The translations under genes and the position numbers were made by a program. A DNA stretch of 63,413 nt, the filler included, from Stramenopiles sp. TOSAG23-3 (taxonomy: Eukaryota): assembly GCA_900128585.1 (NCBI GenBank). It is 6 parts of 6 records of this genome, joined end to end, with 100 filler letters (N's around TTAATTAATTAA, not from the genome) between each part and the next. Parts side by side here need not be neighbours in the genome. Positions count along the whole stretch, not along the records: positions 61,568 to 63,413 come from LT645322.1; 5 more parts are not named here. One strand, given 5' to 3'. Position 1 is the first letter of the stretch, and every line of letters begins with the position of its first letter. This document shows, piece after piece, positions 14,858-63,413 of the stretch. Under the pieces are notes generated by a model. The model worked only from the letters and a program-made list of their open reading frames with translations, did no database searches and was not told the DNA's origin.

Positions 14858-14957
14858 NNNNNNNNNNNNNNNNNNNNNNNNNNNNNNNNNNNNNNNNNNN
14901 NTTAATTAATTAANNNNNNNNNNNNNNNNNNNNNNNNNNNNNNNNNNNNNNNNNNNN
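14858..14957. other. Artificial contig linker
   Basis: 44 N + TTAATTAATTAA (stops in all six frames) + 44 N. Confidence 0.97.
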
Positions 14958-20604: not shown

Positions 20605-20781
20605 CTTCTTCCTTCTTCCTTCTTCCTTCTTCCTTCTTCCTTCTTCCTTCTTCCTTCTTCCTTCTTCCTTCTTCCTTCTTCCTNNNNNNNNNNNNNNNNN
20701 NNNNNNNNNNNNNNNNNNNNNNNNNNNNNNNNNNNNNNNNNNNNNNNNNNNNNNNNNNNNNNNNNNNNNNNNNNNNNNNNN
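20605..20781. repeat. (TTCCTTC)n microsatellite running into a 98-N scaffold gap
   Basis: 7-mer repeat from about 20605 to 20683, then Ns at 20684-20781 without the linker motif. Confidence 0.9.
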
Positions 20782-25900: not shown

Positions 25901-26073
25901 CGTGCGCAGGCGACAAGTGCGAAAAAAATCACGGGAGCGACCAGCCAGCGATGTCAATAAAGGGGAACGCTTGCTATATAAACACAAACACACAGTACAT
26001 TAGCTGTTCCGGTGAGCATGAGAGTACTAGGCGATTGTGCCCGTGTCGAAAGAGATGGGGCCCCCCGAACTGA
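22972..26073 (+). CDS. Fusion protein: signal peptide + peptidase M64 + TM segments + SPRING1/UPF0454-like domain + MGAT5-C-terminal-like Cys-rich domain
   Basis: M64: NGPSSNVFDIVLLGEGYT, YGGLG, HELGH..ADIGEEY, CLMR..LCPVC. SPRING1-like: DDGGYIC..GCC..YQCDRC..CC..YEMCVSCC..CRT.S...HENSY..FCY. End: GESCDHVC..CE..NTCE..DQPA..SCSGEH..RRLCPC. Confidence 0.8.
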   Translation: MRTGQMLLGVVAFFVAIAFASSIESDAKAEVHTLLRNGPSSNVFDIVLLGEGYTELETAKFKKDVARVVQEGFGPDGLYFSISPFLNIHSVSTPSRNSGVGMEGSPKDTAFRLFREKGTLRSILPTDEDNFSYNKALGLCKQFAPGCDIAIVLVNDPFYGGLGDEVAIISASKSSGMIAMRHELGHIFADIGEEYDGGEDYSGPNFAETNRICTETDKPKKSAVDLGGGQIVQRDIWPCIPWSHWLSDSSKKTEVTPQPSQMLFMDHPWASIETAPFRGKFSSRGAERLRVEFSISGAAGPGELVLKLDGNVFKRFTLPENNDRVFFHAESDRLPLVNGAHKFSLTMAKDLRSAEESVKLPRHGPSTICHLGIWEYYKNFEKTTGFVGAYPVYQKPGVRLGYRPTDNSCLMRSMESERLCPVCNERIWQRLSERTNLIENVVVQGKRIKVNTLPFGTIRKPKILPGENVWIKLNRCKGSKEGSKAHIVEDEFEITVDLATGCWEVHVQVVSAEVRKGFIGSSGTFIVPSDVKPGSAIAVTPLKMKERVAPDSKPVPSSHSTNSEAKGKAEVEKRKHSKQQRIASGADKKLDRATPQQGEMGPSPAHGRELETKLGTKHVRTHQPAYARKSNMVSVLVVDLSYVCGSVLLYCCSSVDIRKRLRRRFLVWTFLLATIHFAVSFSNPTMSSRVERTNGNTVGERTQDEEIRTKVHPTIDNVAINVSKGQAHQSKTGAMPSDPGPLVPTTPVSSNTEKASPEKTGAGPKPNTPKEAGSKAPAMSPKSCRSERYGKDYAVDDGGYICPRFMLEFTSGCCPRASKKGMLRATKLQPSKRYQCDRCHQRMQCCKNYEMCVSCCMGQPEMQSLKSKTRRLLAPVPLVYNGLKIFKSPDCGSSDPFLKCKCRCRTHSQLTRHENSYESPWHFCYHKTPPKRDPPVLFAGDVGESCDHVCKRHDDKVCEDHDLIAVNTCENLRSKFPCAGDKCEKNHGSDQPAMSIKGNACYINTNTQYISCSGEHESTRRLCPCRKRWGPPN

Positions 26074-29400: not shown

Positions 29401-29764
29401 TGTAGGGGACGTGGGATTGGTCCCCCAATCCAAGTTTTGATATGACGTCCCCCAGGGCCAGCAAACTTTTGTTGATTGCCGTTCCTTCTTTCAGAGTTTT
29501 CCCCTTGGCTTTCGTGTTCTTTTGTCTTTCGGACCCCGCGAGATCGACCAACGTTAAAAAGCAATAACTCTTTTCCGGCTCATAGCCAGAGGAACCGAAA
29601 CTATGAAATTCTTCCTCCCCTCCGTTTTCTTGCATGTTGTTGAATTCTTTGATAATCTTATTTTCCCGTTCCACACGTTCCCTCGAGGCAACACTTTCTA
29701 TTACTATTCGAAAGACTGTATGGGATCGACTACTCCTAGCGTTCATCTGCGTGCTAGCAGTCTG
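26459..29764 (-). CDS. Kinesin (kinesin-7/CENP-E-like), 5'-truncated, long coiled-coil tail with an IQ-like motif and one in-frame TAA
   Basis: Switch I MNARSSRSH, switch II LVDLAGSER, HVPYRNSKLTRIL; AIQRVIRQALLR. ORFs 27071-29746 and 26459-27034 are in the same frame, separated only by the TAA at 27071-27073. Confidence 0.85.
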
Positions 29765-29765
29765 G

Positions 29766-29865
29766 NNNNNNNNNNNNNNNNNNNNNNNNNNNNNNNNNNN
29801 NNNNNNNNNTTAATTAATTAANNNNNNNNNNNNNNNNNNNNNNNNNNNNNNNNNNNNNNNNNNNN
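29766..29865. other. Artificial contig linker
   Basis: 44 N + TTAATTAATTAA + 44 N. Confidence 0.97.
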
Positions 29866-30212: not shown

Positions 30213-33200
30213 ATGCTTACTTCAGCAAAGTCTTTGGCAAGGGCAGCGTTCTGCACCTTTTGCTTTTCTCTACTGGTAAGGAACGACTTCGTCAATGGAG
30301 GAGCGCCTGGTTTTGAACAGGTTGTCGGGGATGTGTCACAAATGCTAAAAAATCTGGCGGATGAGGAGTTGTGTGTTCCGGACATACAAGATTCCTACAG
30401 CAAAGCCACTTACGTGCGCAGTAACGAAGATGGGTCGAACATTTTGGACAAAATTGCGGAGGGGGTCAAAAAGACCGTACAAAGAATATTAATTGATCCC
30501 GTCGAAAGGATAAAGAGAAAGCTTGAAACGCAACTGTCTGCAGAAAATTTTGAGCAGCTGGAAAAAAGAGCAAAGGAACTGTACGACGACGGGCGATGGT
30601 CACCAGACTTCTGTCAAAACTTTCACGCCGAGGCCGAGCCTTACTCCGCCAGCTTCCTCCGCAAAGTGGACTTGACGAAAAGCTGTGCTGGTAACCCGTG
30701 GTATGCGAGAAATGAAACTCTTGAAGACACGCTCCTTTTCCAAGCTGCATTTGATCAAGGTGACATTGATGCAGAATTTAAGGAGAATATGAAGAGCGTA
30801 AAAACGCTGAAGTGGCAATATGTTGGTACCGCAACAGGATACCATCGCTTTTACCCAGCTGCACCTCGCAAGCCGTGGGGCTCGAGCACTGGTCGCTCGA
30901 TTCCTACCGAACAGAGAGACTGGGCAAATATTTTTTTCCTCCTCATTCTACCTGGATTAGTTTTCCACCTTTGGTTTTATAAAATAAAGCCTTACTATGG
31001 CATATGGTTCTTCGTCAAATCAAAGGATGGAAAGAGACTCGTGAAGCAACACTCTCGCGAAAACAGGGAGGGTCCCGACAAAGAAAAGAAAACGATCCGC
31101 AGCAGCCGCGTAGACGGCGCCGACGGGGAGATAGAAGAGAAAGACAGCACTGCCGATATGCATGATCTGGAGAAATATGCGTCACATGATACAACGATTG
31201 AAACAGGTCAGTTGTATAGCCGGCGCTTCATTGCTTACATTGCACTGGCACAGTTCTGGCTAACGTATGTTCCGTTTACGGTAACCCTGCTTGTTGGGTT
31301 CAAAACGACTCCTCAGTCCGACGGCGAGTTTGTTGATAAGTTTGGTGCAGTAAATTTTGAAACCATGGGACCGTTGTCTGGAGGACTGGTGGCAATTATT
31401 GTACTATGGGTTCTGGCAGTTATAGGACTAATATGCCAAACATTATTTATCTACAGCCAAGTGAACCAAATTGTTCGGGAACAGAATGATGACGATGGCG
31501 ACGAAGAGTCCAACGCCAAAAAAGGATTTGGGAGGAAATGTTCTTCGTATTTTTTCTTTGGTGTTGTAATTCCCTACATCTTGATGCATTTATCTTTATA
31601 TTTTCTAACTGATATCGATGCGTATGACCCGCGGACAAGGCCGTGGTACGTAAAAGCTGCGGGGGAGCCGAAGGACATGGTAATCATCATTGACTCCAGC
31701 GGATCTATGATGGAGCATGATCGAATGAAATATGCAAAAGCGGCAGCAAAAAAGGTGTTGACAACATTAAACGAGGATGACCGTGTGGCAGTAATTTCAT
31801 TCGCAACAGAAGCCCATTTCCCGGGTGTGGAATTTGTGACCGAAATAGAAGCTGCCAGAAAGAAAGGTGAGGGCGATCAATTTAACGATCGTGAAATTAG
31901 AACTCGTATGGAACGCCAGGAAAAAATTAGCCAAAACCCGTTTGATTTCACGTGTACTGACGGCCAGCACAAACGGATGGCTCCTGCAAATTACCATAAT
32001 AAGGAATTCTTTATGGATTTTATCGAGGGTATAAAACCAAGCGGGAGAACGAACTACATTGCTGCGTTCCGTGCAGCATTTGAATATTTAAATACTAGGC
32101 CCAATAATCATATTACACCGCGAAAGTCCGCTATTGTTTTCCTGACAGATGGTGCACCCACAGAACCTCACAAATCTGGAAAGAGAGAAGACTACGTTTT
32201 AAAGAATTTCAAAGAGGCGAAGAAGGTGCTGAACGAGTTGCGTGCGACAATGCAAAATCCACCTCATTTATTTACCTACGTGTTAGGCTCTGACATGAGT
32301 GAAGAGGAGCGCGTACAGCTGTCTGACATTACAAACATCCCCAAATTTATTGATGATGGTGACGTCGGAGATTTGATGGTGAGTATGGGAACTTACTATG
32401 AACAAGCGGACTACTTGTACGACTCCAAAACTGCGAAAACAGTTATGACCCTTCCCTATTATGATTATGATGGCCTAGGAGTTGTATTGACGGCAGCAGC
32501 GCCAATATTTCGCAACGTGGGGAATTTTAAAAATGTTACTGCAATTGCCTCCGAACAAGAACGATATGTTGGAGTTGTAGGAATAGATATGGCAGTAGCA
32601 GACATATTTAAGGATTTAGTGGATTCCACTCGGCATGGAAAGCGATCGTTTGCTTTCTTGATTGATTTCAGTGGTAGAGTTTTGTACCACCCCAACTTGC
32701 CGTCCCCGGAACAAAACACAGGTAATCAGCCTAAATTTGTGGACATTCAAGATTTATTGATCGTCCAATCGTGCTCTGGGGTGCATTCAATCTGGAACAA
32801 CACTGGTGGTGTTGATACCACAATGGTTAACTCGATTCGAACCGGTATGATGAGTGGGGGGTCCGGTTCACAGCGTTTAAAAATGACTATGTTGTACCCC
32901 AGAGGTGGCGCCTCGGAAGGAGCTAGTTCTGCCACATTCTGTGGGAAATTGCATTGGAAAAGAATCGATAATGCCGAATTTTCTCTTGGGTTCTTCCTCG
33001 AGGATGAAGACGCGACGCGGTATATTATTCCGGTGGATTCAGTAACACACAAAGAAACGACGAAGTACTTAGAAAGGGACACCGATTACTACCATCGCAT
33101 CGATGTCGTGCCATCTCCAGGCGCATATTTTGAGGACGGGTTCCCAGCCTGCGATGGCTTTTACGTTCAAGTTAACGCCTCGTTTAACGAAAGTTGCTGG

Positions 33201-36200
33201 AAGCTAGCCGCTTCGTCGTTTCAAAATTCTTATTATTATATACAGGAAGGCGACGAAGACAGAGGCAAGCCTTTAAAGGACCGGATAGAGAGAGTCAAAA
33301 CGTTGAATCGGTTGATAAACTCAGACGACACGAAATCAAAGCTTGACTTTGGAAAGATCGCCAGGCCTAGAGTTCGTGAAGACATATTTTTGACTCGAAA
33401 GGTCGAATCATGCTGGTTATCAAGAGTTGATCGTACTGTGGAAGGGACCAAGAGGGGGATAAACAGATACATTGGTACGGAAAATGGGGTTTTTAGGCAA
33501 TTGCCCTGTGCCCCACTCTCAAGATATTACGATCCTAGGAAACGACCGTGGTACATGCGCAGTTCGGAATACCCAAATTGGTATGCACTAAGCACTTACA
33601 TCGATGCGTTTTCCGGTAACCCGGTGACAACTTTGAGTAAGGGAATAATGCATAACCAAACTGTAAAGGCTGTTGCAGGGATAGATGTCAGCGTCGAGGC
33701 AATCGCTAAAATATTTCAAGTCGCTCTTCAACGTATTACTAACGAGGAATGGAAAACATTTTATGTTGTTGATCTTAGTGGTGCTTTGATTTATCATCCA
33801 GATATCGTTCAATTCAAAAGCTTGCTTAGCTCCACAGGATCGCCTCATTTGTCTAAACTTACAGGGGATAATGAGAAATGCCTGTCTGATCTGCTTGGCT
33901 GGGAAACAAGCATTTGCAAAGATTTATCATCGATGAAATACTTTGAGACGTCACAGTTAACTGGTGGGCTAGTGGGTTTGAGGGTGAGAGAAACACTAGT
34001 TGCCCAACGTATTCCAAATTCCAATGCTGTGTTGATAGTGAAAAAGAATAACATGGATTGTAAGATTCTGGAGGATAACACTATAACACAGGATGAAAAA
34101 TTTAGAAATTACTTTTGCAAAGACCCACCCTGCAAGGTTGTTGAAAAGCTGGATGCCTGCTCTAACAATGTCATTCCCTGGAAGAGCTGCTCCGGCGCAT
34201 GCCCCGTACCTTACGCAGGTGAGTACCAGACAATATACTATGATGGTGGCACTTCTCCGGAAGTAAAACAATTTATAGATAGTGGCAAATGGGGCAAAAC
34301 GGTACGATTTGACGTACACAAAGGTTCAGATGGCAAGGGACAGTCCCGGTACATATTTTATAAACCGAGCGATAATACTGATCAGTCAGGTAAGGTACGT
34401 TTCGCCTCGCCATATTCTTGTAATACTCAGAAAGGAGACTGCTTTGTGCAAGGTTCAACAGCACCCACGCGGCAAATAGTCCGCATGTCTGGGGTATGCC
34501 CGCAGCAGGTTCCCTCTGCAGGTAATTTTAAAGAAGAAATGAACCTTTGGTATTTCCCATGCATCAGCCTGTATTGGATAATAGCCATTTTCTTATTCGT
34601 TTCGGCCATATATTTCTTGGCTGTAAAGATTCGACGTGGAAACACAACGGTCAAGAAGCACATGTGGTGCTATTTTGCGCTGTTACTTTCTCCGGTTCTT
34701 TTGTGCTGCGCTGCCATTCAAATGTTTATGGTCGGCATAATATGGATTTCCCCTGTGGAGTACGACAAGTGGAAAGAAGAATTTTTTGATCCAAAAGGAA
34801 AACGGAGCGGTCGAACAGTCACTGAGCACTTTCTAGTTACTCCTAAATATTTTTGCGAATCTTTGTTGCATTTATTTTTAGTTCCAGCTTATATTTTGGG
34901 GACGGTCATAATTTCATCGAGCTCGATTTTACCCCCTCACTTTGCTAAGAATTACAGGGCATTTGTCAGAAACCTTGAGGCAAATGAAGAAATGGACCGG
35001 GAAGACCGGTGGATGAAATTTATCCCGGTGCATACGTATGTTGCTCTCAAAGATTGGTTCCTTTTTATATTATTCCCTGTTATTTTTGCATGGGTTGTCC
35101 TTGAGTTTGTTATGCTCTTGTCGTTGGCAATAATGGATTCCTACTTGTTTTCTTTGGCATGCGATGAACTTGGACCGGGGCAAGACCGTGCTGCGTTTGT
35201 CCTGAAGATGATCCGTTCCTTTCTTTCTGCCATTTATGGAGACGAAGAAGACCCCAAAAAGCATGTGTCTGAGCTGTTTTTGGTAATTCCAAAATATTTC
35301 GTTTTATCAATATTTGCTTTCGTATGGAAAACTTTTGAATTACCGATGTTTGCAGTGATACTTATTACAGGGCTACATGCAAAACGATGCTACCGAAAAA
35401 TGTTTGGGCTGTGGCAAGGCTACTACAGCTACTATGAACGATGGTACACTGTTGTTCCTACCCAATTTACGTGTCTAACGATTGATATAATAGCGCTATG
35501 CTTCGTCGTCTTGCCTTTAATATTGGGAGCATCGGTTGCTTTGCTAATATGGATACTAGTCGAAGTATTTTTAATGTGTCCTGTAATAGGCCTTTCTTAT
35601 GCTCCTGGTGGAGCATACTATTTAGATGATGTGTGGGAAAAAATAATGGAAACACCTGACGAACAAGAAACTCACGGCAAAGTTGAAAAACGCTCTATCA
35701 CCATTGAGATGAACAAGATGGAGGGTAAAACAAGCGAAGATGCAGTAGAAGATGTTAACAAAGGCGAAAATGAAGTGGATGATGCTTGGCTCGGTGTGAT
35801 TTTGCGAAAGGATTTTGCTAATAATGCCGTTGTAAGAGAAATTTACGCGAAGTGCAATAAGCATGAAACGGAAACCATAAAGAGGCTGAAGGATTTGAAT
35901 AAGTTCGTATTAGTCAGTGGCGACATTTGGAAGTCCTACAAAAAGTGGTTTTGCAATATTTTCTACAAGGCTACCATGGTTATCCCGTATTACTTCTACT
36001 TGGCCCTAAAACAGAACGCTGTGTTTTTTTTGAATTGTCTTCAATTCATTGTTGCAATGCCTATGTTCGTGTGCATCCTTTTTCCTTCTCCGGGAGAGTT
36101 GGTTTTTTTTGGGGCGTTTGGTACGGACCTTACTGTAGCATTGTGCTGGCAAGATTTAACTGCATATTGGAAAACAGATAAGACGGGTGAAGAAAAAGAG

Positions 36201-39200
36201 AAAAAAGGAAGATTACCTATTGTCACAGTATTGCACTATTTTCTGGAAACGTTTTTTTTGCAATGGATATGGATGCCTGTCGAACTTTGCTTATTTCTCA
36301 TATTAATGTTTACTTCATTTTTGCACGTGGAGTACCACCGCTGTCTGTTTCAACTAAGAAACAAAGCTCTTGGAAGATATGATAAAATGTACTTCACGGT
36401 CCCGCTTAGCTTTTTTCGGGGGGCATTCATTTTCAGTTACCGAATCTCCAGAACCGTTTTACTCTTTATTTTCACTTGTTTTTTATGTGTTTACTTTTTG
36501 TTAGAGTCTGTGCTTTTCCTGGTTTCTTGGTTCTTTGTTTTCTTGGTATATTGTTGTACTCTTGGGCTTATAGAAATCGAACACCAAATTTACCAGAACG
36601 AACTGATGGCTGGTATCAACTTCTTATACTCGGGAAAGAAGGAAGCGGGGGGGAAGAAAGTGGTGAAATGGAAAGAAAGAAAAGTCGGTCCTAAATCGAA
36701 CGGAAAAGATGCTGATGTCATTAAGAGGCAAGGGTCCTCCTTTCAATTACGACGGCAGTACACAGTAGTGCTGAGAACTTGGTTTGAGCGCGTAACAGAT
36801 CCACGGCTGTATTATGTGGTCCCCGTTTTCTTTATTAGAAGTTTGGCGTGTCTTATTTTTACTCTCGTTTTACTGCCATTTGTTGTTATCTCCGCTACGG
36901 TAAATTATACGGTTACATTTGTAGTCTACTGCGGGCCTGAGCGGAAGAATCTTGATGAGCGCCGTAAACAGCTGTGGGAAAAAGAAGAAATTACTCATAA
37001 CATTATGAACATAATAGAGATCCACCTGTTTTCGTCGTATGAATTTGTGCCAAAAACCTTGCTTTTTTTAATTTCATTGCCATTGCAGATAGTCCTCTTT
37101 GCAATCATATGCATTTCCCCCCCATGCTTAGCTCTGAAATGTATAAGAAGATTATGTGATCGAAACACGTCATATGCAGAGAAGGCGTACAAAACTATAC
37201 CTTCGACTTTCCTGGATGTGTGCAAATGGTGGCTTGCTTTGTTTCTAAAGTATGATCTACCTGTACTGTTCGTCCTTGTATGCTTAATTTTGTTGGTACT
37301 ATTTGCCGTTGTGTTTGTGCTGGAGCTAAGCATGTATCTGTTAGTGTGCATTACGGTCGTACAGGCAGTTGAGTGCAAAGACGAACTAGAAGAGTTGCTC
37401 GGTGAAACGGGCGGTAAAAAAGCGATAAATGTCCGAAGAATGTCAGCCCACTATTTATCGCAGGATATGCACGCTTCAGTTGTTGAGATTAATCCCGTCC
37501 CAGCCGTTGTTACCAACAGCTTTGTGGGCGTGAAGGAAGACAAAGAAGCGGCGGAGGAAAAAGACGCATATTCGAACAACGCTTCGCTGGAACGACTTAT
37601 CCAGCTGGAAGTGTTGCCGTATGAACAAACGGTTTTGGTATATGACAAATGTGATAAAGATGAAGAAAAGGCAAGGCAAAGACTAATGAAGCTGGTCCAG
37701 TACGACATGTTAATTATGAAATTACGCAAGCTGAGTCCTGGACTTTATGATCGCGAAAAAATTCTGTGCGTCTTGGAGCAATGTGGTTACAATGAAAGGA
37801 AAGCTAGGGACGAGATTGTAATGAATACACTCACCATATGGCTTGTCAGGGCCAGGAATTTTCTTTCGATAGTCCCTAAACATTTGTCAAAAGCCATTCT
37901 GTTTTACATAAGGCAAACAATATGCTTGCCCTTTTATATCATTTCGCTCGCGATGGTACTACTTACTTCTATCTTGCTTGTCTTCACTGTGCAGTTATGG
38001 ACCAAGCTTATGGATAAAAAGCGGCCTCTGTCTGATCGAATAATGCCGTTTTATCGCCCAACGTTTGAGAATTTCTATTTGTCAATACTTTTCTATTTAT
38101 TCCTTCCGATGCAAGCAGTCATGTCATTGATTATTTTGGGTTGTGGGTTTGAGGCAAAACGTTGGTGGATAGAACTATTCTTCAACCCAGAAAAAGTTGC
38201 TTGGAAATTGCGCATATTTTACACGACATGGAAATATTTCATTCTGACGATGAGAAAAACCGGGGCTGAGGCCGGGGACTTTGCTGATGCAGCAGGGGAA
38301 TTTGTCGCCACGAAAATTAAGAAAATGGTAGGTGGTGCCGGGGGTATTGTCGTGGCTCTTCTTAAATTGTTCATTGCACTCTGTGCAATTGCTATTGCTG
38401 TGCCTATTGGGGCAGTGGAATTGTGTTTCTTTATAATCATCTGCATTTTTCGTGTCGAATACTATGATTGTATCTATGAAATTAAACATGGGGATACGCT
38501 TTGGGATGCGCATTGGGTTTTTCGAGCTTTGTGGGCAATCCCCCCTCACTTTTTTATCACCCTTGTTTTTCTTGCATACTTCCCTTTCCTTGTGTTAATG
38601 TTTGCGGTAATCTCGGGGACAGGAGTTCAACTCAAACAATGCTTAAAAGATCTAGGCTATTGGTATGACGAGGATAAGTTAGCATTGACAGACTTAGAGC
38701 TTACCGAGATTTTTGAAATGGAAGTAGTGGACAAGTTCCTTCGTTGCCCTTCAATGGAATCCAATGACGAGAAAAGGGATGATGTTTGTGAATTATTGTC
38801 CCTATATAAGTACCATATTATTCAGGAGAGGGATAGAAACAATAAAAATGCAACCAATTATTCCTTGTCTGATAAAGAGTTTGATCGTATCCGAGCGCGT
38901 TTAAAGCCAGTTTTGCTTAATGCTTGCATTAAGAAAATCAATGCGATCGAAGGTAGCCTTAAGAAAGTTTTACAAAACAGGAAAGAAGAGCGACGATATG
39001 CTCGATATTGGACTGCTATTCCTAAGAATTTTATCGAAATGTGCGCAATCATTTTGAAGTTGTTGCTAAATTTTACAATTGTGACCACTAAATATTCATT
39101 CAAGGGTCTTTTGTTCTTTTTTAAATTGCTAATTTTGGACATAATAATCATGATACCTTTGACAGTTTCGTACACGGCAATAATGCTTTCCATGTTTTTA

Positions 39201-41282
39201 GTGGTTTTCTTTTCTGTTCAAAATACCGTATGTATTAAGCAAATAAAGGAAGCCTGGAAAAGGAATAAATCAGCAGCTATTGCTGAAAAAAATACTGCCA
39301 AAGTTGCAGAGGCTGTAGAAGCGGGCAAAGGAAAGGTTGAAAAGTCTACAGAAATAAAGCAAACCGATACCACGAAAGATAGCACGGGTGGTATTTACAT
39401 AGAAATCTTCAGAATAATGGTTAAGCATTTTCTGACTGCACTTATGTTTTGGGTCTACTTTCCATTTTGGTTATTAGGTATAATATTCACTACGGTGTGT
39501 CCACCGTGTAGCTACTCGCGCCAGATGTGGTCAGACTTGTTGTGTAATAAGAAATTGTCTAGGGAGGAAAGAATTTGGGGTGTTGTGGGTAAGTATGCTT
39601 TGAAAACGTTGGGGTACTGTGCGGAGAAAGTTGGCCATTGCTTAACTACTTGCTTTAAATGTGGCGCAACATCTCTTCGCATGCTGTCTTATTTTGTAGC
39701 CCTTTTAGTCACATTTCCCTTGCTTACTCTGTGGAGTGTTACTGTTACGGTCACTGTAGTGGCAGGCATAGTATTTTTGATACCTTGCCTGCAAGTATTA
39801 TTTAGAGGGCCTCCAAAACATGCAGCAGCCGCATTAGAAAAAAGAGACAAAGAATTTGTGAACTGGAAGAAAGTCGGCTGGATTTGTAGTGTAACAATGA
39901 GATGTTTCTTCTACAGCATCTTCCTATGGTTGCTTGGTGGCCCATGCTTGTTTTATTTGCTGTTACTGTACTGTTTTATTGGTGCAAGGTCGAAAGCAGA
40001 AAAGGATGAACTTAGCTACATTACGTCGATCGTATTTGCAAAGCACGCCAGCTATTGCAAAAGGAAATTTGAGGATCGTGCAGACAAACCATCCATAGAA
40101 TCTTACAGTATGGAATTCAAAAACTGTAAAGAAGATACAGTTATAACAGCATACGAAACGGCACTCAAGCGTGGAAATGAAAAGCTTATCACAACATTTT
40201 TGAAGGACGGAGGAATCGCGTTTCAGTTTGAAATTTTGGACGGGGTGTGGCTTCTGTACCCCCTGTCTCTGCGATTACTATTTCGACACTTAAAGTCTGC
40301 CTTGCTTGGTTTGTTTGGCTTGTGGCGCCTTTGTATAAAGGCTTTAATTGCGATGTTTTTTGCGTCGTTGTGGTTAGGTTTAGGTGTTCCGTGTATCCTT
40401 GTGGTTGTTCCGACTCCCTTTCGTAGCGATATGTTTCTCGAATTTAAAACTAATGGTGGCCATGTGAAGAACCCGAAAAACTTGCTTTTAACTTGGAAAT
40501 ATTTCTGTTATGCATTGCCTTGGATTATTTTGTTCCCGGTGCAGTATATAATTGCGTTTCCAATAGTTTCTTGTTTCCAAAACAAAGAGGAAAAGGACCT
40601 TAGGGTTGAGGAGTACAAAAAGGTGGGTTCACCGAAGAAGTATTGGCTGTATGCAATGTATGCGGCCAACCCCATCTTTATTCGCATTGCGCGCACTAAA
40701 GTGGGCCCGGGGGTCTACAAAGTTTTCTTTTTGTGCTCGAAGCTTCTCGGTGCTGTAGTTCTTTTGCCCTTTGTTATAGCTCTTCTCTTGTTGGAAGGGC
40801 TCATGCTGGTTACATGCGCAATCAGCGGGATATTGGTCCTGGATTTCCACATTATTAAGGCAATACGACAGTTCTACCAGGAGGAAAAAGATTATTTTCT
40901 ATTGGGACTAGTCATTCCCCAGTATTTTCTCCTCGCGGTCATATTTATAATGTGGGCACCATGTTTCTGGCTTTTGAGGGGATTGGTAATTCTTTTTGGT
41001 GGGAAAGAACGCCGCAGGCAACTGAAGGAGGACCTTCTCAATCCTGAAGGAGACCATTTTTATCTTGTGTGGCCTGTTTTGTTCCACTTTTTTTTTACAT
41101 TTACTTCGCTGTTGCGAATCCCATGCGCCTTGGCTCTTCTTCCGTGTGCTTGGATAACTCGTGGTGCCGCACACATCGTATTTTTTCCGTGGCGTCAGCG
41201 TGGTGCTAAATATTTTCACGTGTGGCCAAAGAAGTTGGTAGTTTTTTTTCGGGACTCAAAACCGTTTCGAATGGCTTTATGA
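30213..41282 (+). CDS. Giant membrane protein: alpha2delta/CACHD1-like VWA_N-dCache-VWA-dCache ectodomain followed by a long repetitive polytopic region
   Basis: WQYVGTATGYHRFYPA, YDPRTRPWY..PKDMVIIIDSSGSM (MIDAS DxSxS, then GRTNY and FLTDG), PYYD..G.V.T..VVGID, AFLID..G.VLYHP, second YYDPRKRPWY..YIDA..VAGID. Dozens of hydrophobic helices follow from about 34570. Confidence 0.85.
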   Translation: MLTSAKSLARAAFCTFCFSLLVRNDFVNGGAPGFEQVVGDVSQMLKNLADEELCVPDIQDSYSKATYVRSNEDGSNILDKIAEGVKKTVQRILIDPVERIKRKLETQLSAENFEQLEKRAKELYDDGRWSPDFCQNFHAEAEPYSASFLRKVDLTKSCAGNPWYARNETLEDTLLFQAAFDQGDIDAEFKENMKSVKTLKWQYVGTATGYHRFYPAAPRKPWGSSTGRSIPTEQRDWANIFFLLILPGLVFHLWFYKIKPYYGIWFFVKSKDGKRLVKQHSRENREGPDKEKKTIRSSRVDGADGEIEEKDSTADMHDLEKYASHDTTIETGQLYSRRFIAYIALAQFWLTYVPFTVTLLVGFKTTPQSDGEFVDKFGAVNFETMGPLSGGLVAIIVLWVLAVIGLICQTLFIYSQVNQIVREQNDDDGDEESNAKKGFGRKCSSYFFFGVVIPYILMHLSLYFLTDIDAYDPRTRPWYVKAAGEPKDMVIIIDSSGSMMEHDRMKYAKAAAKKVLTTLNEDDRVAVISFATEAHFPGVEFVTEIEAARKKGEGDQFNDREIRTRMERQEKISQNPFDFTCTDGQHKRMAPANYHNKEFFMDFIEGIKPSGRTNYIAAFRAAFEYLNTRPNNHITPRKSAIVFLTDGAPTEPHKSGKREDYVLKNFKEAKKVLNELRATMQNPPHLFTYVLGSDMSEEERVQLSDITNIPKFIDDGDVGDLMVSMGTYYEQADYLYDSKTAKTVMTLPYYDYDGLGVVLTAAAPIFRNVGNFKNVTAIASEQERYVGVVGIDMAVADIFKDLVDSTRHGKRSFAFLIDFSGRVLYHPNLPSPEQNTGNQPKFVDIQDLLIVQSCSGVHSIWNNTGGVDTTMVNSIRTGMMSGGSGSQRLKMTMLYPRGGASEGASSATFCGKLHWKRIDNAEFSLGFFLEDEDATRYIIPVDSVTHKETTKYLERDTDYYHRIDVVPSPGAYFEDGFPACDGFYVQVNASFNESCWKLAASSFQNSYYYIQEGDEDRGKPLKDRIERVKTLNRLINSDDTKSKLDFGKIARPRVREDIFLTRKVESCWLSRVDRTVEGTKRGINRYIGTENGVFRQLPCAPLSRYYDPRKRPWYMRSSEYPNWYALSTYIDAFSGNPVTTLSKGIMHNQTVKAVAGIDVSVEAIAKIFQVALQRITNEEWKTFYVVDLSGALIYHPDIVQFKSLLSSTGSPHLSKLTGDNEKCLSDLLGWETSICKDLSSMKYFETSQLTGGLVGLRVRETLVAQRIPNSNAVLIVKKNNMDCKILEDNTITQDEKFRNYFCKDPPCKVVEKLDACSNNVIPWKSCSGACPVPYAGEYQTIYYDGGTSPEVKQFIDSGKWGKTVRFDVHKGSDGKGQSRYIFYKPSDNTDQSGKVRFASPYSCNTQKGDCFVQGSTAPTRQIVRMSGVCPQQVPSAGNFKEEMNLWYFPCISLYWIIAIFLFVSAIYFLAVKIRRGNTTVKKHMWCYFALLLSPVLLCCAAIQMFMVGIIWISPVEYDKWKEEFFDPKGKRSGRTVTEHFLVTPKYFCESLLHLFLVPAYILGTVIISSSSILPPHFAKNYRAFVRNLEANEEMDREDRWMKFIPVHTYVALKDWFLFILFPVIFAWVVLEFVMLLSLAIMDSYLFSLACDELGPGQDRAAFVLKMIRSFLSAIYGDEEDPKKHVSELFLVIPKYFVLSIFAFVWKTFELPMFAVILITGLHAKRCYRKMFGLWQGYYSYYERWYTVVPTQFTCLTIDIIALCFVVLPLILGASVALLIWILVEVFLMCPVIGLSYAPGGAYYLDDVWEKIMETPDEQETHGKVEKRSITIEMNKMEGKTSEDAVEDVNKGENEVDDAWLGVILRKDFANNAVVREIYAKCNKHETETIKRLKDLNKFVLVSGDIWKSYKKWFCNIFYKATMVIPYYFYLALKQNAVFFLNCLQFIVAMPMFVCILFPSPGELVFFGAFGTDLTVALCWQDLTAYWKTDKTGEEKEKKGRLPIVTVLHYFLETFFLQWIWMPVELCLFLILMFTSFLHVEYHRCLFQLRNKALGRYDKMYFTVPLSFFRGAFIFSYRISRTVLLFIFTCFLCVYFLLESVLFLVSWFFVFLVYCCTLGLIEIEHQIYQNELMAGINFLYSGKKEAGGKKVVKWKERKVGPKSNGKDADVIKRQGSSFQLRRQYTVVLRTWFERVTDPRLYYVVPVFFIRSLACLIFTLVLLPFVVISATVNYTVTFVVYCGPERKNLDERRKQLWEKEEITHNIMNIIEIHLFSSYEFVPKTLLFLISLPLQIVLFAIICISPPCLALKCIRRLCDRNTSYAEKAYKTIPSTFLDVCKWWLALFLKYDLPVLFVLVCLILLVLFAVVFVLELSMYLLVCITVVQAVECKDELEELLGETGGKKAINVRRMSAHYLSQDMHASVVEINPVPAVVTNSFVGVKEDKEAAEEKDAYSNNASLERLIQLEVLPYEQTVLVYDKCDKDEEKARQRLMKLVQYDMLIMKLRKLSPGLYDREKILCVLEQCGYNERKARDEIVMNTLTIWLVRARNFLSIVPKHLSKAILFYIRQTICLPFYIISLAMVLLTSILLVFTVQLWTKLMDKKRPLSDRIMPFYRPTFENFYLSILFYLFLPMQAVMSLIILGCGFEAKRWWIELFFNPEKVAWKLRIFYTTWKYFILTMRKTGAEAGDFADAAGEFVATKIKKMVGGAGGIVVALLKLFIALCAIAIAVPIGAVELCFFIIICIFRVEYYDCIYEIKHGDTLWDAHWVFRALWAIPPHFFITLVFLAYFPFLVLMFAVISGTGVQLKQCLKDLGYWYDEDKLALTDLELTEIFEMEVVDKFLRCPSMESNDEKRDDVCELLSLYKYHIIQERDRNNKNATNYSLSDKEFDRIRARLKPVLLNACIKKINAIEGSLKKVLQNRKEERRYARYWTAIPKNFIEMCAIILKLLLNFTIVTTKYSFKGLLFFFKLLILDIIIMIPLTVSYTAIMLSMFLVVFFSVQNTVCIKQIKEAWKRNKSAAIAEKNTAKVAEAVEAGKGKVEKSTEIKQTDTTKDSTGGIYIEIFRIMVKHFLTALMFWVYFPFWLLGIIFTTVCPPCSYSRQMWSDLLCNKKLSREERIWGVVGKYALKTLGYCAEKVGHCLTTCFKCGATSLRMLSYFVALLVTFPLLTLWSVTVTVTVVAGIVFLIPCLQVLFRGPPKHAAAALEKRDKEFVNWKKVGWICSVTMRCFFYSIFLWLLGGPCLFYLLLLYCFIGARSKAEKDELSYITSIVFAKHASYCKRKFEDRADKPSIESYSMEFKNCKEDTVITAYETALKRGNEKLITTFLKDGGIAFQFEILDGVWLLYPLSLRLLFRHLKSALLGLFGLWRLCIKALIAMFFASLWLGLGVPCILVVVPTPFRSDMFLEFKTNGGHVKNPKNLLLTWKYFCYALPWIILFPVQYIIAFPIVSCFQNKEEKDLRVEEYKKVGSPKKYWLYAMYAANPIFIRIARTKVGPGVYKVFFLCSKLLGAVVLLPFVIALLLLEGLMLVTCAISGILVLDFHIIKAIRQFYQEEKDYFLLGLVIPQYFLLAVIFIMWAPCFWLLRGLVILFGGKERRRQLKEDLLNPEGDHFYLVWPVLFHFFFTFTSLLRIPCALALLPCAWITRGAAHIVFFPWRQRGAKYFHVWPKKLVVFFRDSKPFRMAL

Positions 41283-44648: not shown

Positions 44649-44748
44649 NNNNNNNNNNNNNNNNNNNNNNNNNNNNNNNNNNNNNNNNNNNNTTAATTAA
44701 TTAANNNNNNNNNNNNNNNNNNNNNNNNNNNNNNNNNNNNNNNNNNNN
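44649..44748. other. Artificial contig linker
   Basis: 44 N + TTAATTAATTAA + 44 N. Confidence 0.97.
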
Positions 44749-59520: not shown

Positions 59521-59620
59521 NNNNNNNNNNNNNNNNNNNNNNNNNNNNNNNNNNNNNNNNNNNNTTAATTAATTAANNNNNNNNNNNNNNNNNNNNNNNN
59601 NNNNNNNNNNNNNNNNNNNN
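59521..59620. other. Artificial contig linker
   Basis: 44 N + TTAATTAATTAA + 44 N. Confidence 0.97.
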
Positions 59621-59931
59621 AAGCCCTTCATCCTTTTCACTTTTCGTTCAATATAAAAGAATGGAATTGGTTGATCTATATATAAAATATAAATGTTTCA
59701 ATTCGATTTTGTTTCGTTTCGTTTCTTTTCTTTCTTGAAACCAATAAATCTTTCTCTCTCTCTCTCTAATTAATTTTAATTAAATCGTTTCGTATTTCTT
59801 TCTTCTTCTCCTTTCTCTTCTTTTTTTTTCTTTTTTTTTCTTCTTCTTAATTATTATAACACGGTGTACCAAATTTATTTGATAGGTATAAAAGAATACA
59901 ATATTATCTACGCAAAATTAAAAAAAAAACA

Positions 59932-61288
59932 TTGCAATGGTGCTGCCTGGGCCTAATGATATGTGGCTGTAAAAACATGAAAAAAATCAGTAGGCAAAGA
60001 AATAATTTTGTGGTTGGAGCCAATGAAAAATGCATTGTATTTTTGTTGTTTTTGGCGAGTCAATCATTCAATTCACTCACATTGAGTCACTCAAGTAGAA
60101 ACGTTTTTTTTTACATTTATTTATTACGAATGACGGTAGTTCCAAGAGAAGATTACAAAATTAGTATAGTAATAGCATTAGTGAGATTACAAAATTAGTA
60201 TAGTAATAGCATTAGTGTGTGGGGCGAGACGCGATGATGCGATGGGGCGCATGCGTCTCGCCTAATATTTTTATGACGACTGCTACTATTTTTTTTTTGT
60301 CGATGTGTCTATTCACATTCAACCGCACTATCAGCAATCTTTGATTCTTTTATTTCCATCGTATTGCTGAAAAAAATAGTAGAGATCTTTGATTTTTTTA
60401 TTTCCATTGTACTAAAAATATTTTATTTCAATAACCTTTTTCTTTTTCTTTTCTTTGACTTGGGAAAATTGGTCAATCCGTTTCACTCAGTTATACGGTT
60501 TTCAACTTCTCTAACGCGTCCGTTCAGCTTCCCCCACTTACCTCGCTTCACACTGTTGAACCATATCTCTGATATCTACATATAACTATCAGTCGCCACG
60601 CGGCCCACTACGCATATATGGACCCCTCTAGTTATCTGCCTTTACCTGTTCTGCTATGGGCATATCGCCTTGATCCTCGCCTTCACTATTTGATACTGCC
60701 CTTCCCCCTTTGTCGCTTTATGCTCACCTTCCTTTTCTGCCCACTGGTTCGCAAGCACCCCTTTACTTGCTCCCCCCCTTTTTCTGTATATTTCTCTCAC
60801 TACACGAGTTGTTTCCTCCTCGTTTTGATTTCCCTATTATCATCTTATCGACTGAGCCTTAGGGTGATCTGTTCCTACTGCTCCTGATCCTTTACCTTCT
60901 GTTTCACTTTTACCCTCGCTCCCTGGAGAGTTACCTTTGGGACTCTTACCCTATCCTCGTTTATTTGCTTCTTCTCTTTTTTAACTGCTACTCATTTTCT
61001 TGTCACTATTATTATTCTTCCTGTTACAGTTGGGTCTCCCTTGCTGTTCACCCCTACAGCGCCCTTGCATGCTAACAACTTATCTCTCGCCACCTCCAGT
61101 CGTAATAAACTTGTATATTTAGCCCTAAATATAAAAAATATCAAAAAAAAAAAATAATTAATTTTAATAAAAAAATTGATTGACAGGCAATAAAAATATT
61201 GCATAAATCACACCATAAACCTTAAATACAATACATTAAATACCATTGTACTTTTAATTTCTAAAATTAACAGGCAGCACCATTGCAA
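59932..61288. mobile_element. Possible non-autonomous TIR element or relic
   Basis: Perfect 18-bp inverted repeat ttgcaatggtgctgcctg (59932-59949) / caggcagcaccattgcaa (61271-61288), flanked by CA on both outer sides; no transposase ORF. Confidence 0.35.
60150..60217. repeat. Perfect 34-bp tandem duplication
   Basis: agattacaaaattagtatagtaatagcattagtg x2. Confidence 0.95.
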
Positions 61289-61467
61289 CATAAATCACCA
61301 AAATCAGTAGTGATTAACTACCAGATGGACTCCTATCAAACCACTCTCAGATTTAAATTTGGTACACCGTGATAATGGTATTTCTATGTTATTTATTATT
61401 ATTAAAAACGAAGAGATGATTGATTGAGATAAAAGAAGAAAGGAATTTTTCATATTTTTTAATAATA

Positions 61468-61567
61468 NNNNNNNNNNNNNNNNNNNNNNNNNNNNNNNNN
61501 NNNNNNNNNNNTTAATTAATTAANNNNNNNNNNNNNNNNNNNNNNNNNNNNNNNNNNNNNNNNNNNN
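61468..61567. other. Artificial contig linker
   Basis: 44 N + TTAATTAATTAA + 44 N. Confidence 0.97.
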
Positions 61568-62548
61568 TTTTCTCCCGGGTATGTCTACATCAATTATGTT
61601 ACCATTCTTGGGCATTTGGCTTCTGTTATCGGTATGCTAATAATATATGCACCACGAGAACCTCTAAATGTCCCGTATACGGAAACGTACCTTGCATGGG
61701 AACGGAACAAAACCGTACTGGTGAACGGGGTCAATACATCGACATGTCCCGGTGAGCCTAGAAATACTGCAAACGATGGTGCATTCTGTCTCTCGAGTAA
61801 AACAGACTTTTTACATTGTGGTGACGACAGGTGTGGGTTGGATTATGGGTGGCTCATTATATCTTTCCATCTCTTGTCCTTCTTCTTCCAATTGCTGGCA
61901 GCGCTAACAGATCATTCTGAATTACTTCAACGATTTCTATGTGGGTATCGCTACAGTGACATGATTCGGCGTGGAAGAAATCCATTGCGTTTTGTTGAAT
62001 ATAGCATTAGCGCTTCGATTATGTTGATCATTATTGCCATTATCAATGGTATTTTTGATATCCATCACCTATTCGCAATTGGTGTTCTTACATGTTCCTG
62101 TCAGCTGTGTGGACTGGTTGTCGAGTACTTGGACGATTGTCAATTGGGTCTAATGTGGATCAACCATTTGAACGGGTGGCTAACCTTCTGCTCCGCATAT
62201 TACATTATTGCAAGGGCTTTCTTTGCATCTTTGAGTTATGATCCGGACATTCAACCACCGGGATTTGTGTATGCGATCGTGGTAGCCATATTCCTCCTCT
62301 ACGCATCTTTTGGTATCGTTCAGTTGGTAGAACTGACCTGTTTGACTTGTCCACTGGGTAAAAATTGGTGTACTACGGAACGTACGGGGGAATGGACTAG
62401 AATATGGTGTCCAGCTTGTCGCACAAAAAGCAAAGGAAAACTAAGGTGCAACCCATTGTACAAAGAAATGGTGTTTGTTACATTATCGTTGGGTGCAAAA
62501 CTGGTTTTGGGGTGGCTTTTGTATACAAATGTATTTATGAACACATAA
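61568..62548 (+). CDS. Heliorhodopsin, 5'-truncated, probably viral
   Basis: Frame is open from the contig edge. TM1 INYVTILGHLAS (N..H), TM3 NPLRFVEYSISASIM (R, E counterion), TM5 HLNGWL, TM6 LYASFGIVQ, TM7 EMVFVTLSLGAKLVLGW (retinal-binding Lys in SLxAK). Confidence 0.92.
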   Translation, partial: FSPGYVYINYVTILGHLASVIGMLIIYAPREPLNVPYTETYLAWERNKTVLVNGVNTSTCPGEPRNTANDGAFCLSSKTDFLHCGDDRCGLDYGWLIISFHLLSFFFQLLAALTDHSELLQRFLCGYRYSDMIRRGRNPLRFVEYSISASIMLIIIAIINGIFDIHHLFAIGVLTCSCQLCGLVVEYLDDCQLGLMWINHLNGWLTFCSAYYIIARAFFASLSYDPDIQPPGFVYAIVVAIFLLYASFGIVQLVELTCLTCPLGKNWCTTERTGEWTRIWCPACRTKSKGKLRCNPLYKEMVFVTLSLGAKLVLGWLLYTNVFMNT

Positions 62549-62557
62549 TGCATAGAA

Positions 62558-63013
62558 ATGAGACGAACGTACCTCTCCGATTCAAGTGATGAAGAGACCA
62601 AGTACAACCCACAAACCTACCATATCCTTGTACTAGGGGGCCAAGTTGGAAAAACTTCGTTCATACACCGAGTTACACAAAATTACTTCACAATGTACTA
62701 TGAGAAAACTCAAACGCTAGAAATACATAAACCATTGCAGGTAGGTGAGTCAAAATGGTGTTTTTGGGACCTTCCACCGCATGTATACGATGGGATCAAA
62801 CAAATGGATTTGGTTTTATTGTGTTTTAATAGCAAAGAGACAAAAAAGTTTGCAGTGGAAAAATGGAGAAAGATTCAAAGTACAATGAAGTATTTACCTC
62901 CAGCGATGATGGTAGGGATACGCATAAAAGAAAAGGGGGCACACTACATCGATAGTATGAGTACAGAAGGAATTTCTAAATTAATGTTTAATATATCGAA
63001 GCTACTACCATAA
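62558..63013 (+). CDS. Degenerate Ras-superfamily small GTPase
   Basis: YHILVLGGQVGKTSFIHR (shortened G1), YEKT (G2), FWDLPP (at the G3 position), VLLCF, MMVG, and DSMSTEGISKLM C-terminal helix; no CaaX. Confidence 0.75.
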   Translation: MRRTYLSDSSDEETKYNPQTYHILVLGGQVGKTSFIHRVTQNYFTMYYEKTQTLEIHKPLQVGESKWCFWDLPPHVYDGIKQMDLVLLCFNSKETKKFAVEKWRKIQSTMKYLPPAMMVGIRIKEKGAHYIDSMSTEGISKLMFNISKLLP

Positions 63014-63022
63014 GGTCTTTTT

Positions 63023-63412
63023 TTATTCCCATCTAAAGCCATTCCATGTACGGTTGTAGATAACTTTATCGCTTTTGCTTATGTTCTCCGACCCCCACAT
63101 GGGCTGGAGGTTGGTGTAATGAAAACATCGTCTTTGTTGTTCGGGATCGCTCAAGTCAAAGGAGGCACAGGGCATCATATGATCGGCGTGCCATGTTCCA
63201 TAGTTCTCCCATGTCATTCCCTGTTGGAATCTCATCGTTAGATGGTCTTGTAGGTGCATAAAAGAACAACCAAGCATTGTCATGGTTGGAGCACTCTTGA
63301 CATTGCCTTTGAGTACATTGTGTACGCGGGAACGTAAATTTTTTGCAAGACGGTACTGTGGATCGGTACGGTAACGTTTCTTACTGCGTGCATTTCTTTT
63401 TTTCTTGTATTC
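63023..63412 (-). CDS. HNH-type endonuclease of the prasinovirus endonuclease VII-like family, 5'-truncated
   Basis: Frame open to the window end: KKRYRTDPQYRLAKNLRSRV..LGCS..GMTWENYGTWHADHMMPCASFDL..CFHYTNLQPMWGSENISKSDK, a pattern typical of NCLDV and phage genes. Confidence 0.85.
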   Translation of the reverse strand, partial: EYKKKRNARSKKRYRTDPQYRLAKNLRSRVHNVLKGNVKSAPTMTMLGCSFMHLQDHLTMRFQQGMTWENYGTWHADHMMPCASFDLSDPEQQRRCFHYTNLQPMWGSENISKSDKVIYNRTWNGFRWE

Positions 63413-63413
63413 C

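Follow-up and report, generated by a model that had tools for sequence, protein, structure and literature searches.

What does a cysteine-rich loop do on the cytoplasmic face of a viral heliorhodopsin? The question is raised by a gene at the end of the window, as we call the whole stretch of 63,413 nucleotides analysed here, which derives from assembly GCA_900128585.1 of Stramenopiles sp. TOSAG23-3 and consists of several contigs joined end to end. The gene lies on the last piece (positions 61568 to 63413, 1846 bp) and almost certainly encodes a heliorhodopsin of a marine viral, mirusvirus-like clade, with an insert dense in cysteine between transmembrane helices 6 and 7 (TM6 and TM7). Heliorhodopsins are abundant, and to our knowledge the only function shown for those of eukaryotic viruses is proton transport by one coccolithovirus protein. 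According to our analysis, 85 of the 121 proteins sampled from a large marine viral clade, about 70%, carry such a cysteine-dense module on the cytoplasmic face, to which the partners of bacterial heliorhodopsins bind, and the insert-bearing genes stand in a fixed block with genes for a RING protein, a membrane protein, an atypical small GTPase and Arf. We think that the insert cysteines may be S-acylated by host enzymes, as a role common to the family, and give this reading a probability of about 45%. The "function unknown" of viral heliorhodopsins can thus be turned into concrete questions, namely acylation of the loop versus zinc binding, localisation of the protein and binding of the GTPase-like neighbour. 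The viral heliorhodopsin clade is on record in outline, and the window gene is a new member of it. We found no prior description of the cysteine-rich insert on the cytoplasmic face of this clade or of its pattern across the family, part of which may be on record in the supplementary table of PMC8612252, nor of the constant gene block that includes Arf and an atypical small GTPase.

The cysteine-rich insert between TM6 and TM7

The heliorhodopsin gene runs from 61568 to 62548 on the plus strand (326 codons, with the stop codon at 62546 to 62548) and contains the interval 61730 to 62460 marked by the initial annotation; positions are those of the window, and residue n of the protein corresponds to nucleotide 61568+3(n-1). 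Its 5' end is open, with no start codon, and since the open frame abuts the spacer of a contig join (61468 to 61567), the gene is cut by the contig end, the join removing its 5' end. Compared with the full-length copy of 362 aa at locus L029, which lies on a 35-kb contig and shows 98% protein identity and 97.3% DNA identity over 61568 to 63013, about 36 N-terminal codons are missing; full-length relatives measure 350 to 390 aa. The assignment to the heliorhodopsins, proposed from the outset, is borne out by the Pfam search, by relatives of solved structure and by the predicted fold. In the 326 residues, Pfam detects Heliorhodopsin (PF18761) with an E value of 7e-32 and 111 bits (cut-off 26.7) and, at E ≤ 1, no other family, zinc finger and zinc ribbon families included. 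The only relatives among solved structures are six heliorhodopsin sequences (E values from 7e-14), with 48C12 at E = 8e-14 and TaHeR at E = 1e-11. The AlphaFold2 model, built on an alignment of 121 sequences, has a mean predicted local distance difference test (pLDDT) of 91.5 and a predicted template modelling score of 0.88, and its top ten Foldseek matches are all heliorhodopsins, with template modelling scores, normalised to the target, of 0.74 to 0.82 (0.78 to 0.82 against TaHeR and 48C12). A word-indexed search yielded 203 relatives among 1643 candidates, the closest being 93% identical and 362 aa long; the window protein and the 120 listed of these 203 relatives form the alignment of 121 rows to which the counts below refer.

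The initial annotation had assumed the inverted topology of the family, with the TM6-TM7 loop in the cytoplasm and the TM1-TM2 loop outside, which agrees with the published family descriptions in the portions available. The enlarged outer loop (residues 28 to 93; 61649 to 61846, plus strand) does hold the four cysteines ascribed to it (Cys 60, 74, 84 and 89), together with two N-x-S/T sequons (N47 and N56), and measures about 66 aa versus about 20 in 48C12, the median among relatives being 62 aa. Four cysteines are present in this loop in 103 of the 121 sequences, two in 11, six in 5 and an odd number in 2, so that 119 of 121 have an even number; Cys74 is invariant and all 121 have at least one sequon. 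In the AlphaFold2 model the loop is a confident beta-sheet (strands 34 to 92, pLDDT 89 to 96). Because of the even cysteine parity and the universal sequons, the loop looks lumenal or extracellular, as a product of a eukaryotic secretory pathway. This supports the idea of disulfides, which the confident sheet also favours, and indirectly the inverted topology. The loop would thus face the lumen or the outside, N-glycosylated and fastened by two disulfides. The TM6-TM7 insert, by contrast, has cysteine counts without parity and 19% Lys plus Arg.

This insert spans residues 258 to 294 (62339 to 62449, plus strand) and was correctly described at the start as carrying two CxxC and six cysteines, which stand at positions 258, 261, 268, 281, 284 and 294, the two CxxC pairs being 19 residues apart. 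Its 37 residues hold six cysteines versus ten in the remaining 289 (binomial P = 0.0016); the first of the six lies where TM6 ends and the last directly ahead of TM7. When the relatives were scored for residues within the frame 257 to 295 of the window protein, an insert of 25 to 77 aa was present in 85 of 121, and a short turn in the other 36. Cysteine makes up 18.7% of the 85 inserts, compared with 4.6% of the proteins overall, at 4 to 16 per insert (odd in 41, even in 44); CC doublets occur in 60 of them, CxxC in 77 and CPxC in 15. The columns of Cys258, Cys268 and Cys294 are each retained in 73 sequences and that of Cys281 in 75, while the second cysteine of each pair is rare (Cys261 in 17 of 121, Cys284 in 15). 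In close homologs the cysteines are conserved, so that the refuting outcome named in the initial annotation does not arise: among the eight closest, at 67 to 93% identity, C258, C261, C281 and C294 are present in all eight, C268 in seven and C284 in five. In pairwise comparison, Cys-Cys positions of the insert are retained at 0.77 versus 0.52 identity for other residues between proteins of 80 to 95% core identity, and at 0.49 versus 0.18 at 50 to 65% core identity; the gap is somewhat widened by the scoring matrix, which favours the pairing of cysteines. Model confidence is low in the insert, with a pLDDT of 50 to 72 in the window model and of 44 to 57 in the full-length L029 model, which was built on 35 sequences and has a disordered N terminus of 35 residues. 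Cysteine density thus appears to be selected while most positions vary, which argues for a thiol cluster conserved in composition.

Variable positions with a conserved density of cysteine beside a membrane resemble multi-site S-acylation, and multiply palmitoylated cysteine-rich juxtamembrane segments are known from the coronavirus spike endodomain, cysteine-string protein and the C-terminal cysteine pair of bovine rhodopsin. Those segments are likewise cytoplasmic, next to a membrane helix, dense in cysteine with CC doublets and variable in position; unlike them, the cluster of the window protein forms a loop anchored by a helix on either side. We favour S-acylation because the number and position of the cysteines vary, CC doublets are common, the flanks are basic, the terminal cysteines sit at helix ends and no confident fold is predicted. 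The insert would then be a cytoplasm-facing juxtamembrane thiol cluster in which host enzymes would S-acylate (palmitoylate) several cysteines, and the acylation would pin the loop to the inner leaflet, setting the membrane sorting of the protein and the shape of its cytoplasmic face. The literature linking heliorhodopsins with palmitoylation yielded nothing beyond a general review.

The window gene also invites an explanation by metal, in which the insert would be a structural zinc site, with C258/C261 and C281/C284 forming a two-knuckle Zn(Cys)4; in the wider family, Cys 258, 268, 281 and 294 would clamp the loop between the two helices, and the loops richer in cysteine would bind several metals in the manner of metallothionein. 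Several points tell for zinc and so weigh against S-acylation: the CxxC-19-CxxC spacing in the window gene, whose subclade has knuckles of the CPxC type; at least four cysteines in all 85 inserts, with CxxC in 77 of them; the four columns retained in 73 to 75 of the 85; and the precedent of cytoplasmic zinc ribbons on heliorhodopsins (PMC8612252). To these we add that the case for S-acylation is one of composition and position, and that part of the apparent cysteine retention is owed to the scoring matrix. Against zinc stand the scarcity of the second cysteine of each knuckle (17 and 15 of 121, C284 being Phe or Tyr in three of the eight closest homologs), the lack of conserved cysteine spacing and number together with the common CC doublets, the location of C258 within the predicted TM6 helix, the absence of any zinc-finger family at E ≤ 1 in the Pfam scan, and a pLDDT of 44 to 72 where AlphaFold usually folds real zinc fingers with confidence. 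The variable cysteine number, the doublets and the low confidence fit a lipidated or metallothionein-like cluster better than a fixed zinc finger. A structural zinc site is therefore a serious but tentative alternative for the family; it is relatively more likely for the window gene than for the family average, and in the subclade to which it belongs a single zinc may be shared by the two CxxC pairs, instead of or besides acylation. Both chemistries that the initial annotation had named, zinc binding and acylation, stay live, while its two-CxxC pattern does not extend to the family. A further reading is that the insert has no function in itself and is a stretch of low complexity that is tolerated and drifts. 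Its extreme variation in length and sequence and its low model confidence would suit this, but we hold it to be very improbable, given a cysteine density of 18.7% across 85 diverged inserts, none of them with fewer than four cysteines, and the better retention of cysteine than of other insert residues.

Core residues, probable viral setting and presence in RNA libraries

The core of the protein keeps the features expected to bind retinal. K311 (codon at 62498 to 62500, plus strand) aligns with the Schiff-base lysine Lys241 of 48C12 and is nearly invariant in the 121 sequences, and E144 aligns with the counterion Glu107 and is invariant. Residue-by-residue alignment further pairs R141 with Arg104, Y145 with Tyr108, S148 with Ser111, E186 with Glu149, Q252 with Gln213, E300 with Glu230, S307 with Ser237, S104 with Ser76, Y129 with Tyr92 and N138 with Asn101, whereas the pairs H16/His23, in a weak segment, and N9/Asn16 are less certain. 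Of the 17 polar core residues that Kovalev et al. list as conserved in the family (PMC7049168), 13 are retained. The changes are His80 to Gln108, Trp105 to Phe142 and Gln216 to Glu255, and Tyr226 aligns with Pro296, a tyrosine following two residues further on. The motifs RFVEY in TM3 (residues 141 to 145; 61988 to 62002, plus strand), where R141, F142, E144 and Y145 match R104, W105, E107 and Y108, and SFFFQ in TM2 (residues 104 to 108; 61877 to 61891, plus strand), where S104, F107 and Q108 match S76, F79 and H80, had been read as altered core residues of this gene. Both are present, but they are not private to it: R141, F142, E144, Y145, S104, F107 and Q108 are invariant in all 121 relatives. 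With F142 and Q108 invariant throughout, the altered core is a signature of the whole clade, and by alignment the changes His80 to Gln, Trp105 to Phe and Gln216 to Glu are clade-wide. From the conserved histidine pair of 48C12 (His23 and His80), then, His80 is replaced by Gln108 in 121 of 121 sequences; this does not bar the protein from the heliorhodopsins, since some published viral members also lack these histidines.

At the retinal pocket positions named in PMC7049168, helix 4 has Thr175, Cys178 and Gln179 where 48C12 has Asn138, Met141 and Ile142. These family-specific residues belong to, or adjoin, a TM4 stretch, C176-S-C178-Q179-L-C181 (62093 to 62110, plus strand; 48C12 positions A139 to F144), in which a second CxxC is well conserved (C178 in 116 and C181 in 110 of 121) beside a nearly invariant Gln179. 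C178, C181 and Gln179, in the region of the retinal ring, are a likely colour-tuning site of the clade.

The suggestion of a new heliorhodopsin subfamily was overstated, as the gene falls in a large marine viral clade of the kind reported as new mirusvirus heliorhodopsin types (PMC10132985). We gathered its genomic loci by pattern scans, namely 28 from viral contigs (25 distinct) and the best 80 of 257 confirmed metagenome stretches. The window contig is only 1846 bp long and carries no marker, which tells against a firm assignment, so its viral origin is inferred from the identity to L029 and from the gene block. Four viral records with insert-bearing relatives (G001 to G004) hold no capsid gene (PF04451) of the nucleocytoplasmic large DNA viruses (NCLDV), a weak absence in records that are 16 to 50% complete. 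Markers of mirusviruses do occur in them, a TATA-binding protein in G001 and both Snf7 and histone in G002 and G003. Published frequencies in mirusviruses versus giant viruses are 59% versus 0% for the TATA-binding protein, 54% versus 2% for histone and 64% versus 5% for heliorhodopsin (PMC10132985), and Snf7 is given as not identified in nucleocytoviruses in the available text of PMC12768974. The relatives of the window gene thus appear, from genomic context, to be borne by mirusvirus-like viruses. The histone matches (G002:C1:44547-44861 and G003:C1:76161-76493) each contain one in-frame TAA, which may be a short intron; "intron-rich mirusviruses" are described in PMC12768974. The relative at L012, which lacks the insert, belongs to a giant-virus bin of 849 kb that is complete and has five matches to the NCLDV capsid.

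A quick maximum-likelihood tree was computed from 66 non-redundant genes; it is weakly rooted, and four or five of its rows are very long. The 16 insert-less genes group in it as one clade, with a Shimodaira-Hasegawa-like approximate likelihood ratio test (SH-aLRT) support of 98. Insert-bearing genes lie on both sides of this clade, so that the ancestor probably had the insert and a single loss occurred.

The stretch from 61568 to 63013 is found in 20 public runs of 14 studies, seven of which are RNA libraries. Contigs of four RNA-library runs, each from a different study and one primed with oligo-dT, cover both the heliorhodopsin gene and its downstream neighbour at 90 to 100% likeness, and one contig of 1265 nt spans the junction between the two genes, though a single transcript is not thereby established. 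Against reading this as expression, the RNA-library contigs may include DNA carry-over, and the lay-out of the reads makes uncovered stretches and depth figures uninformative. In our reading of the gene as a whole, the virus would make a retinal-binding heliorhodopsin inside a eukaryotic host cell.

The GTPase-like neighbour and its gene block

The downstream neighbour, which we call GTPl, is an atypical small GTPase-like gene of 151 aa (62558 to 63013, plus strand) that begins 9 nt past the heliorhodopsin stop. Its own Pfam matches are weak (Ras with 21.6 bits, Roc with 23 bits), but both families are matched by all of the 37 distinct members that we collected from the loci, a word-based search for relatives having yielded four proteins. 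Against solved structures, the best matches of the GTPl profile are RhoE/Rnd3, Rab23 and Rab32 (E values from 4e-13 to 1e-11). In the 37 sequences, G31 and K32 of the P-loop GxxxxGK[ST] and the switch-I T51 are invariant, while DxxG is replaced by W-D/E-x-P, with an invariant Pro for the Gly, and NKxD by G-V-R. Since DxxG and NKxD are not matched, GTPl is deemed an atypical member of the Ras fold, or a pseudo-GTPase. It has an acidic, Ser-rich N terminus and no C-terminal cysteine for lipidation. The family opens with a conserved Met-Arg followed by a run of Ser, Asp and Glu, and in the subclade of the window the P-loop is one residue shorter than in all others.

To count the pairing, the 108 loci were clustered at 90% heliorhodopsin identity into 66 clusters (38 insert-bearing, 16 insert-less and 12 other). 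GTPl is directly adjacent in 30 of the 38 insert-bearing clusters, downstream on the same strand in 22 (gaps of 5 to 35 nt) and upstream and divergent in 8; the clusters without it comprise five that are flanked by 550 nt or more on either side and three with flanks too short to tell. It was found beside none of the 16 insert-less clusters, 14 of which have adequate flanks, and in none of the remaining 12, made up of ten distant viral heliorhodopsins and two truncated close relatives. The records G001 to G004 contain exactly one GTPl each (185 to 265 bits), always adjoining the heliorhodopsin, and the giant-virus bin with the insert-less gene has no GTPl match above 35 bits. The pairing is a real, conserved feature of one virus lineage.

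GTPl is in turn part of a collinear block of eight genes, in the order RING finger, p137, a membrane protein of about 249 aa, p200, heliorhodopsin, GTPl, Arf and p600. Within the available flanks, 26 of the 30 clusters have p200, 24 the membrane protein, 21 Arf, 21 p137, 20 RING and 17 p600; Pfam and PHROGs give no match for p137, p200, the membrane protein (p249TM) or p600. We had considered the tandem and divergent layouts as an adjacency that survives rearrangement, and rejected this, since both layouts show the same collinear block, with just the heliorhodopsin gene turned round. The subclade with the inverted gene (L009, L068, L070, L077, L079, L080, L088, L089 and L091, versus L001, L003, L007, L029 and others) lacks the long basic N-terminal tail of the heliorhodopsin, with its R-T-R-R...F-S motif, and has the most cysteine-rich inserts (13 to 15 Cys). 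Two further large viral contigs, L111 (3764 to 4390) and L112 (3782 to 4408), carry p137, the membrane protein, a p200-like open reading frame (ORF), a GTPl-like gene (101 bits) and p600, with no heliorhodopsin and no Arf within 4 kb; their p200-like ORF is of about 560 aa and overlaps the start of the GTPl-like gene. The five well-flanked insert-bearing clusters that lack GTPl have no block gene at all.

Could the insert be a docking site for GTPl, with Arf acting downstream, in a light-controlled small-GTPase module? Such docking would be compatible with either acylation or zinc, and from the gene arrangement we consider it unlikely. In its favour are the adjacency in 30 of 38 insert-bearing versus 0 of 16 insert-less clusters, the single GTPl beside the heliorhodopsin in each of the four viral records together with its absence from the complete giant-virus bin, and the absence of a prenylation cysteine from the C terminus of GTPl, which would therefore need a membrane anchor. 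Precedents exist in the bacterial heliorhodopsins AbHeR with glutamine synthetase (PMC9529153) and TfHeR with photolyase (PMC9769723), in which charged residues of the intracellular loops mediate binding to the protein encoded next to them. However, the insert-less genes form a single clade, so that the correlation of insert and GTPl amounts to about one evolutionary event; for this reason we rejected the association (Fisher P = 2e-8, on a slightly earlier count) as independent evidence. Moreover, the pair sits inside a collinear block in which p200 is as constant a neighbour as GTPl, L111 and L112 have the block and a GTPl-like gene with no heliorhodopsin within 4 kb, and five adequately flanked insert-bearing clusters have neither GTPl nor any other block gene. 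The pairing could reflect genome collinearity rather than function. A fuller proposal, less probable still, is that the cysteine-rich loop would be the coupling device of a viral light switch that recruits or releases GTPl, in this setting probably hydrolysis-deficient, and with Arf steers host membrane traffic by light. If true, heliorhodopsins of eukaryotic viruses would gain their first transducer, and no rhodopsin of whatever type would have been linked before to a small GTPase in place of a heterotrimeric G protein.

In the window, the likeness to L029 ends at the GTPl stop codon. L029 continues with the Arf gene, whereas the window has an endonuclease VII-like (HNH-type) ORF (63023 to 63412, minus strand; PHROG 1035, E = 1.6e-11), open at the contig end, which looks like a mobile gene inserted there or a different junction; it does not resemble the HNH gene found in L003. 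The remaining pieces of the window are set apart by a fixed spacer (N44, a six-frame stop dodecamer and N44) in five copies (14858-14957, 29766-29865, 44649-44748, 59521-59620 and 61468-61567, neither strand), which is not biology; one additional, separate run of 98 N lies at 20684-20781. ORFs that touch spacers are truncated, as in the kinesin ORF at 27071 to 29746, which has lost the first part of its motor domain. These pieces carry eukaryote-like genes for kinesin, V-ATPase subunit C, calreticulin and a mitochondrial carrier. One protist piece has an uninterrupted ORF of 3689 aa (30213 to 41282, plus strand) with VWA and Cache domains, in an architecture that resembles calcium-channel alpha2delta, and an ORF of 1033 aa at 22972 to 26073 fuses M64 peptidase, SPRING1 and GT18-like parts. 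The piece from 59621 to 61467 has the lowest G+C in the window (0.342) and short ORFs only, and is unrelated to the heliorhodopsin contig.

Comparison with known systems

The nearest counterparts are the mirusvirus heliorhodopsins (Gaia et al. 2023, PMC10132985; listed as a core function in PMC12768974), which are likewise marine, viral and intronless and are described as a core, highly expressed gene of unknown role. Mirusvirus genomes also list Ras-related GTPases among their functions (PMC10132985). A cysteine-rich loop, the core substitutions and the order of genes around the heliorhodopsin are not described in the portions of these two papers available. The coccolithovirus proteins V2HeR1 to V2HeR3 (PMC9448325, PMC12873467) are also viral, made in a eukaryotic alga and have the C terminus outside, as is predicted here. 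V2HeR1 likewise replaces conserved histidines, in its case both, and the proton-transporting type of V2HeR3 is marked by an extracellular-half carboxylate, E191, and by photocurrents (PMC9448325). Unlike the window protein, they are not credited with a cysteine-rich loop in the available text.

The closest parallel to the cysteine module is Znf-HeR of Thermoplasmatales (Bulzu et al. 2021, PMC8612252), whose cytoplasmic CxxC-17x-CxxC compares with CxxC-19x-CxxC here. That module is a separate, archaeal N-terminal domain with a Pfam zinc_ribbon match, whereas ours is an insert in intracellular loop 3, viral, with no family match and no conserved spacing. A ribbon of the Znf-HeR type (zinc_ribbon_4) is not present in the N-terminal 36 residues of the L029 copy, which hold one cysteine and are predicted to be disordered. 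The same paper cites reports of zinc binding to TaHeR and 48C12 and mentions three variants with an intracellular loop 3 of more than 50 aa in its supplementary table, so that cysteine-rich loops 3 may be partly on record among them.

In the AbHeR and TfHeR pairs a gene for a soluble protein stands next to the heliorhodopsin gene, as here; those are bacterial operons in which binding was measured (PMC9529153, PMC9769723), whereas the GTPase-like neighbour is a putative partner encoded by a eukaryotic virus. The search for papers on a heliorhodopsin-GTPase pairing in viruses returned none, to judge by listings and abstracts, the available text of PMC10132985 listing both functions separately. 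GTPl itself shares the P-loop and the switch-I Thr with RhoE/Rnd3 and with Rab23/Rab32 and lacks their DxxG Gly, NKxD and C-terminal lipidation cysteine; RhoE is GTPase-deficient.

With the structurally known heliorhodopsins 48C12 (6su3, 6uh3) and TaHeR (6is6, 7u55), the window protein shares the Pfam family and the seven-helix fold at only 19 to 23% identity. It has in common with them the Schiff-base Lys, the counterion Glu and, in 48C12 numbering, R104, Y108, S111, E149, Q213, E230, S237, S76, Y92 and N101. It differs from 48C12 in having Gln, Phe and Glu for His80, Trp105 and Gln216, and Thr, Cys and Gln for N138, M141 and I142. With His80 and Trp105 lost throughout the clade and Thr, Cys and Gln in the helix 4 pocket, altered proton handling and colour are predicted, which may interest builders of optogenetic tools. 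Where the window protein has an outer loop with four cysteines and sequons, that of 48C12 is about one-third as long, and where it has the cysteine-rich insert of 37 residues, 48C12 has a short turn between TM6 and TM7.

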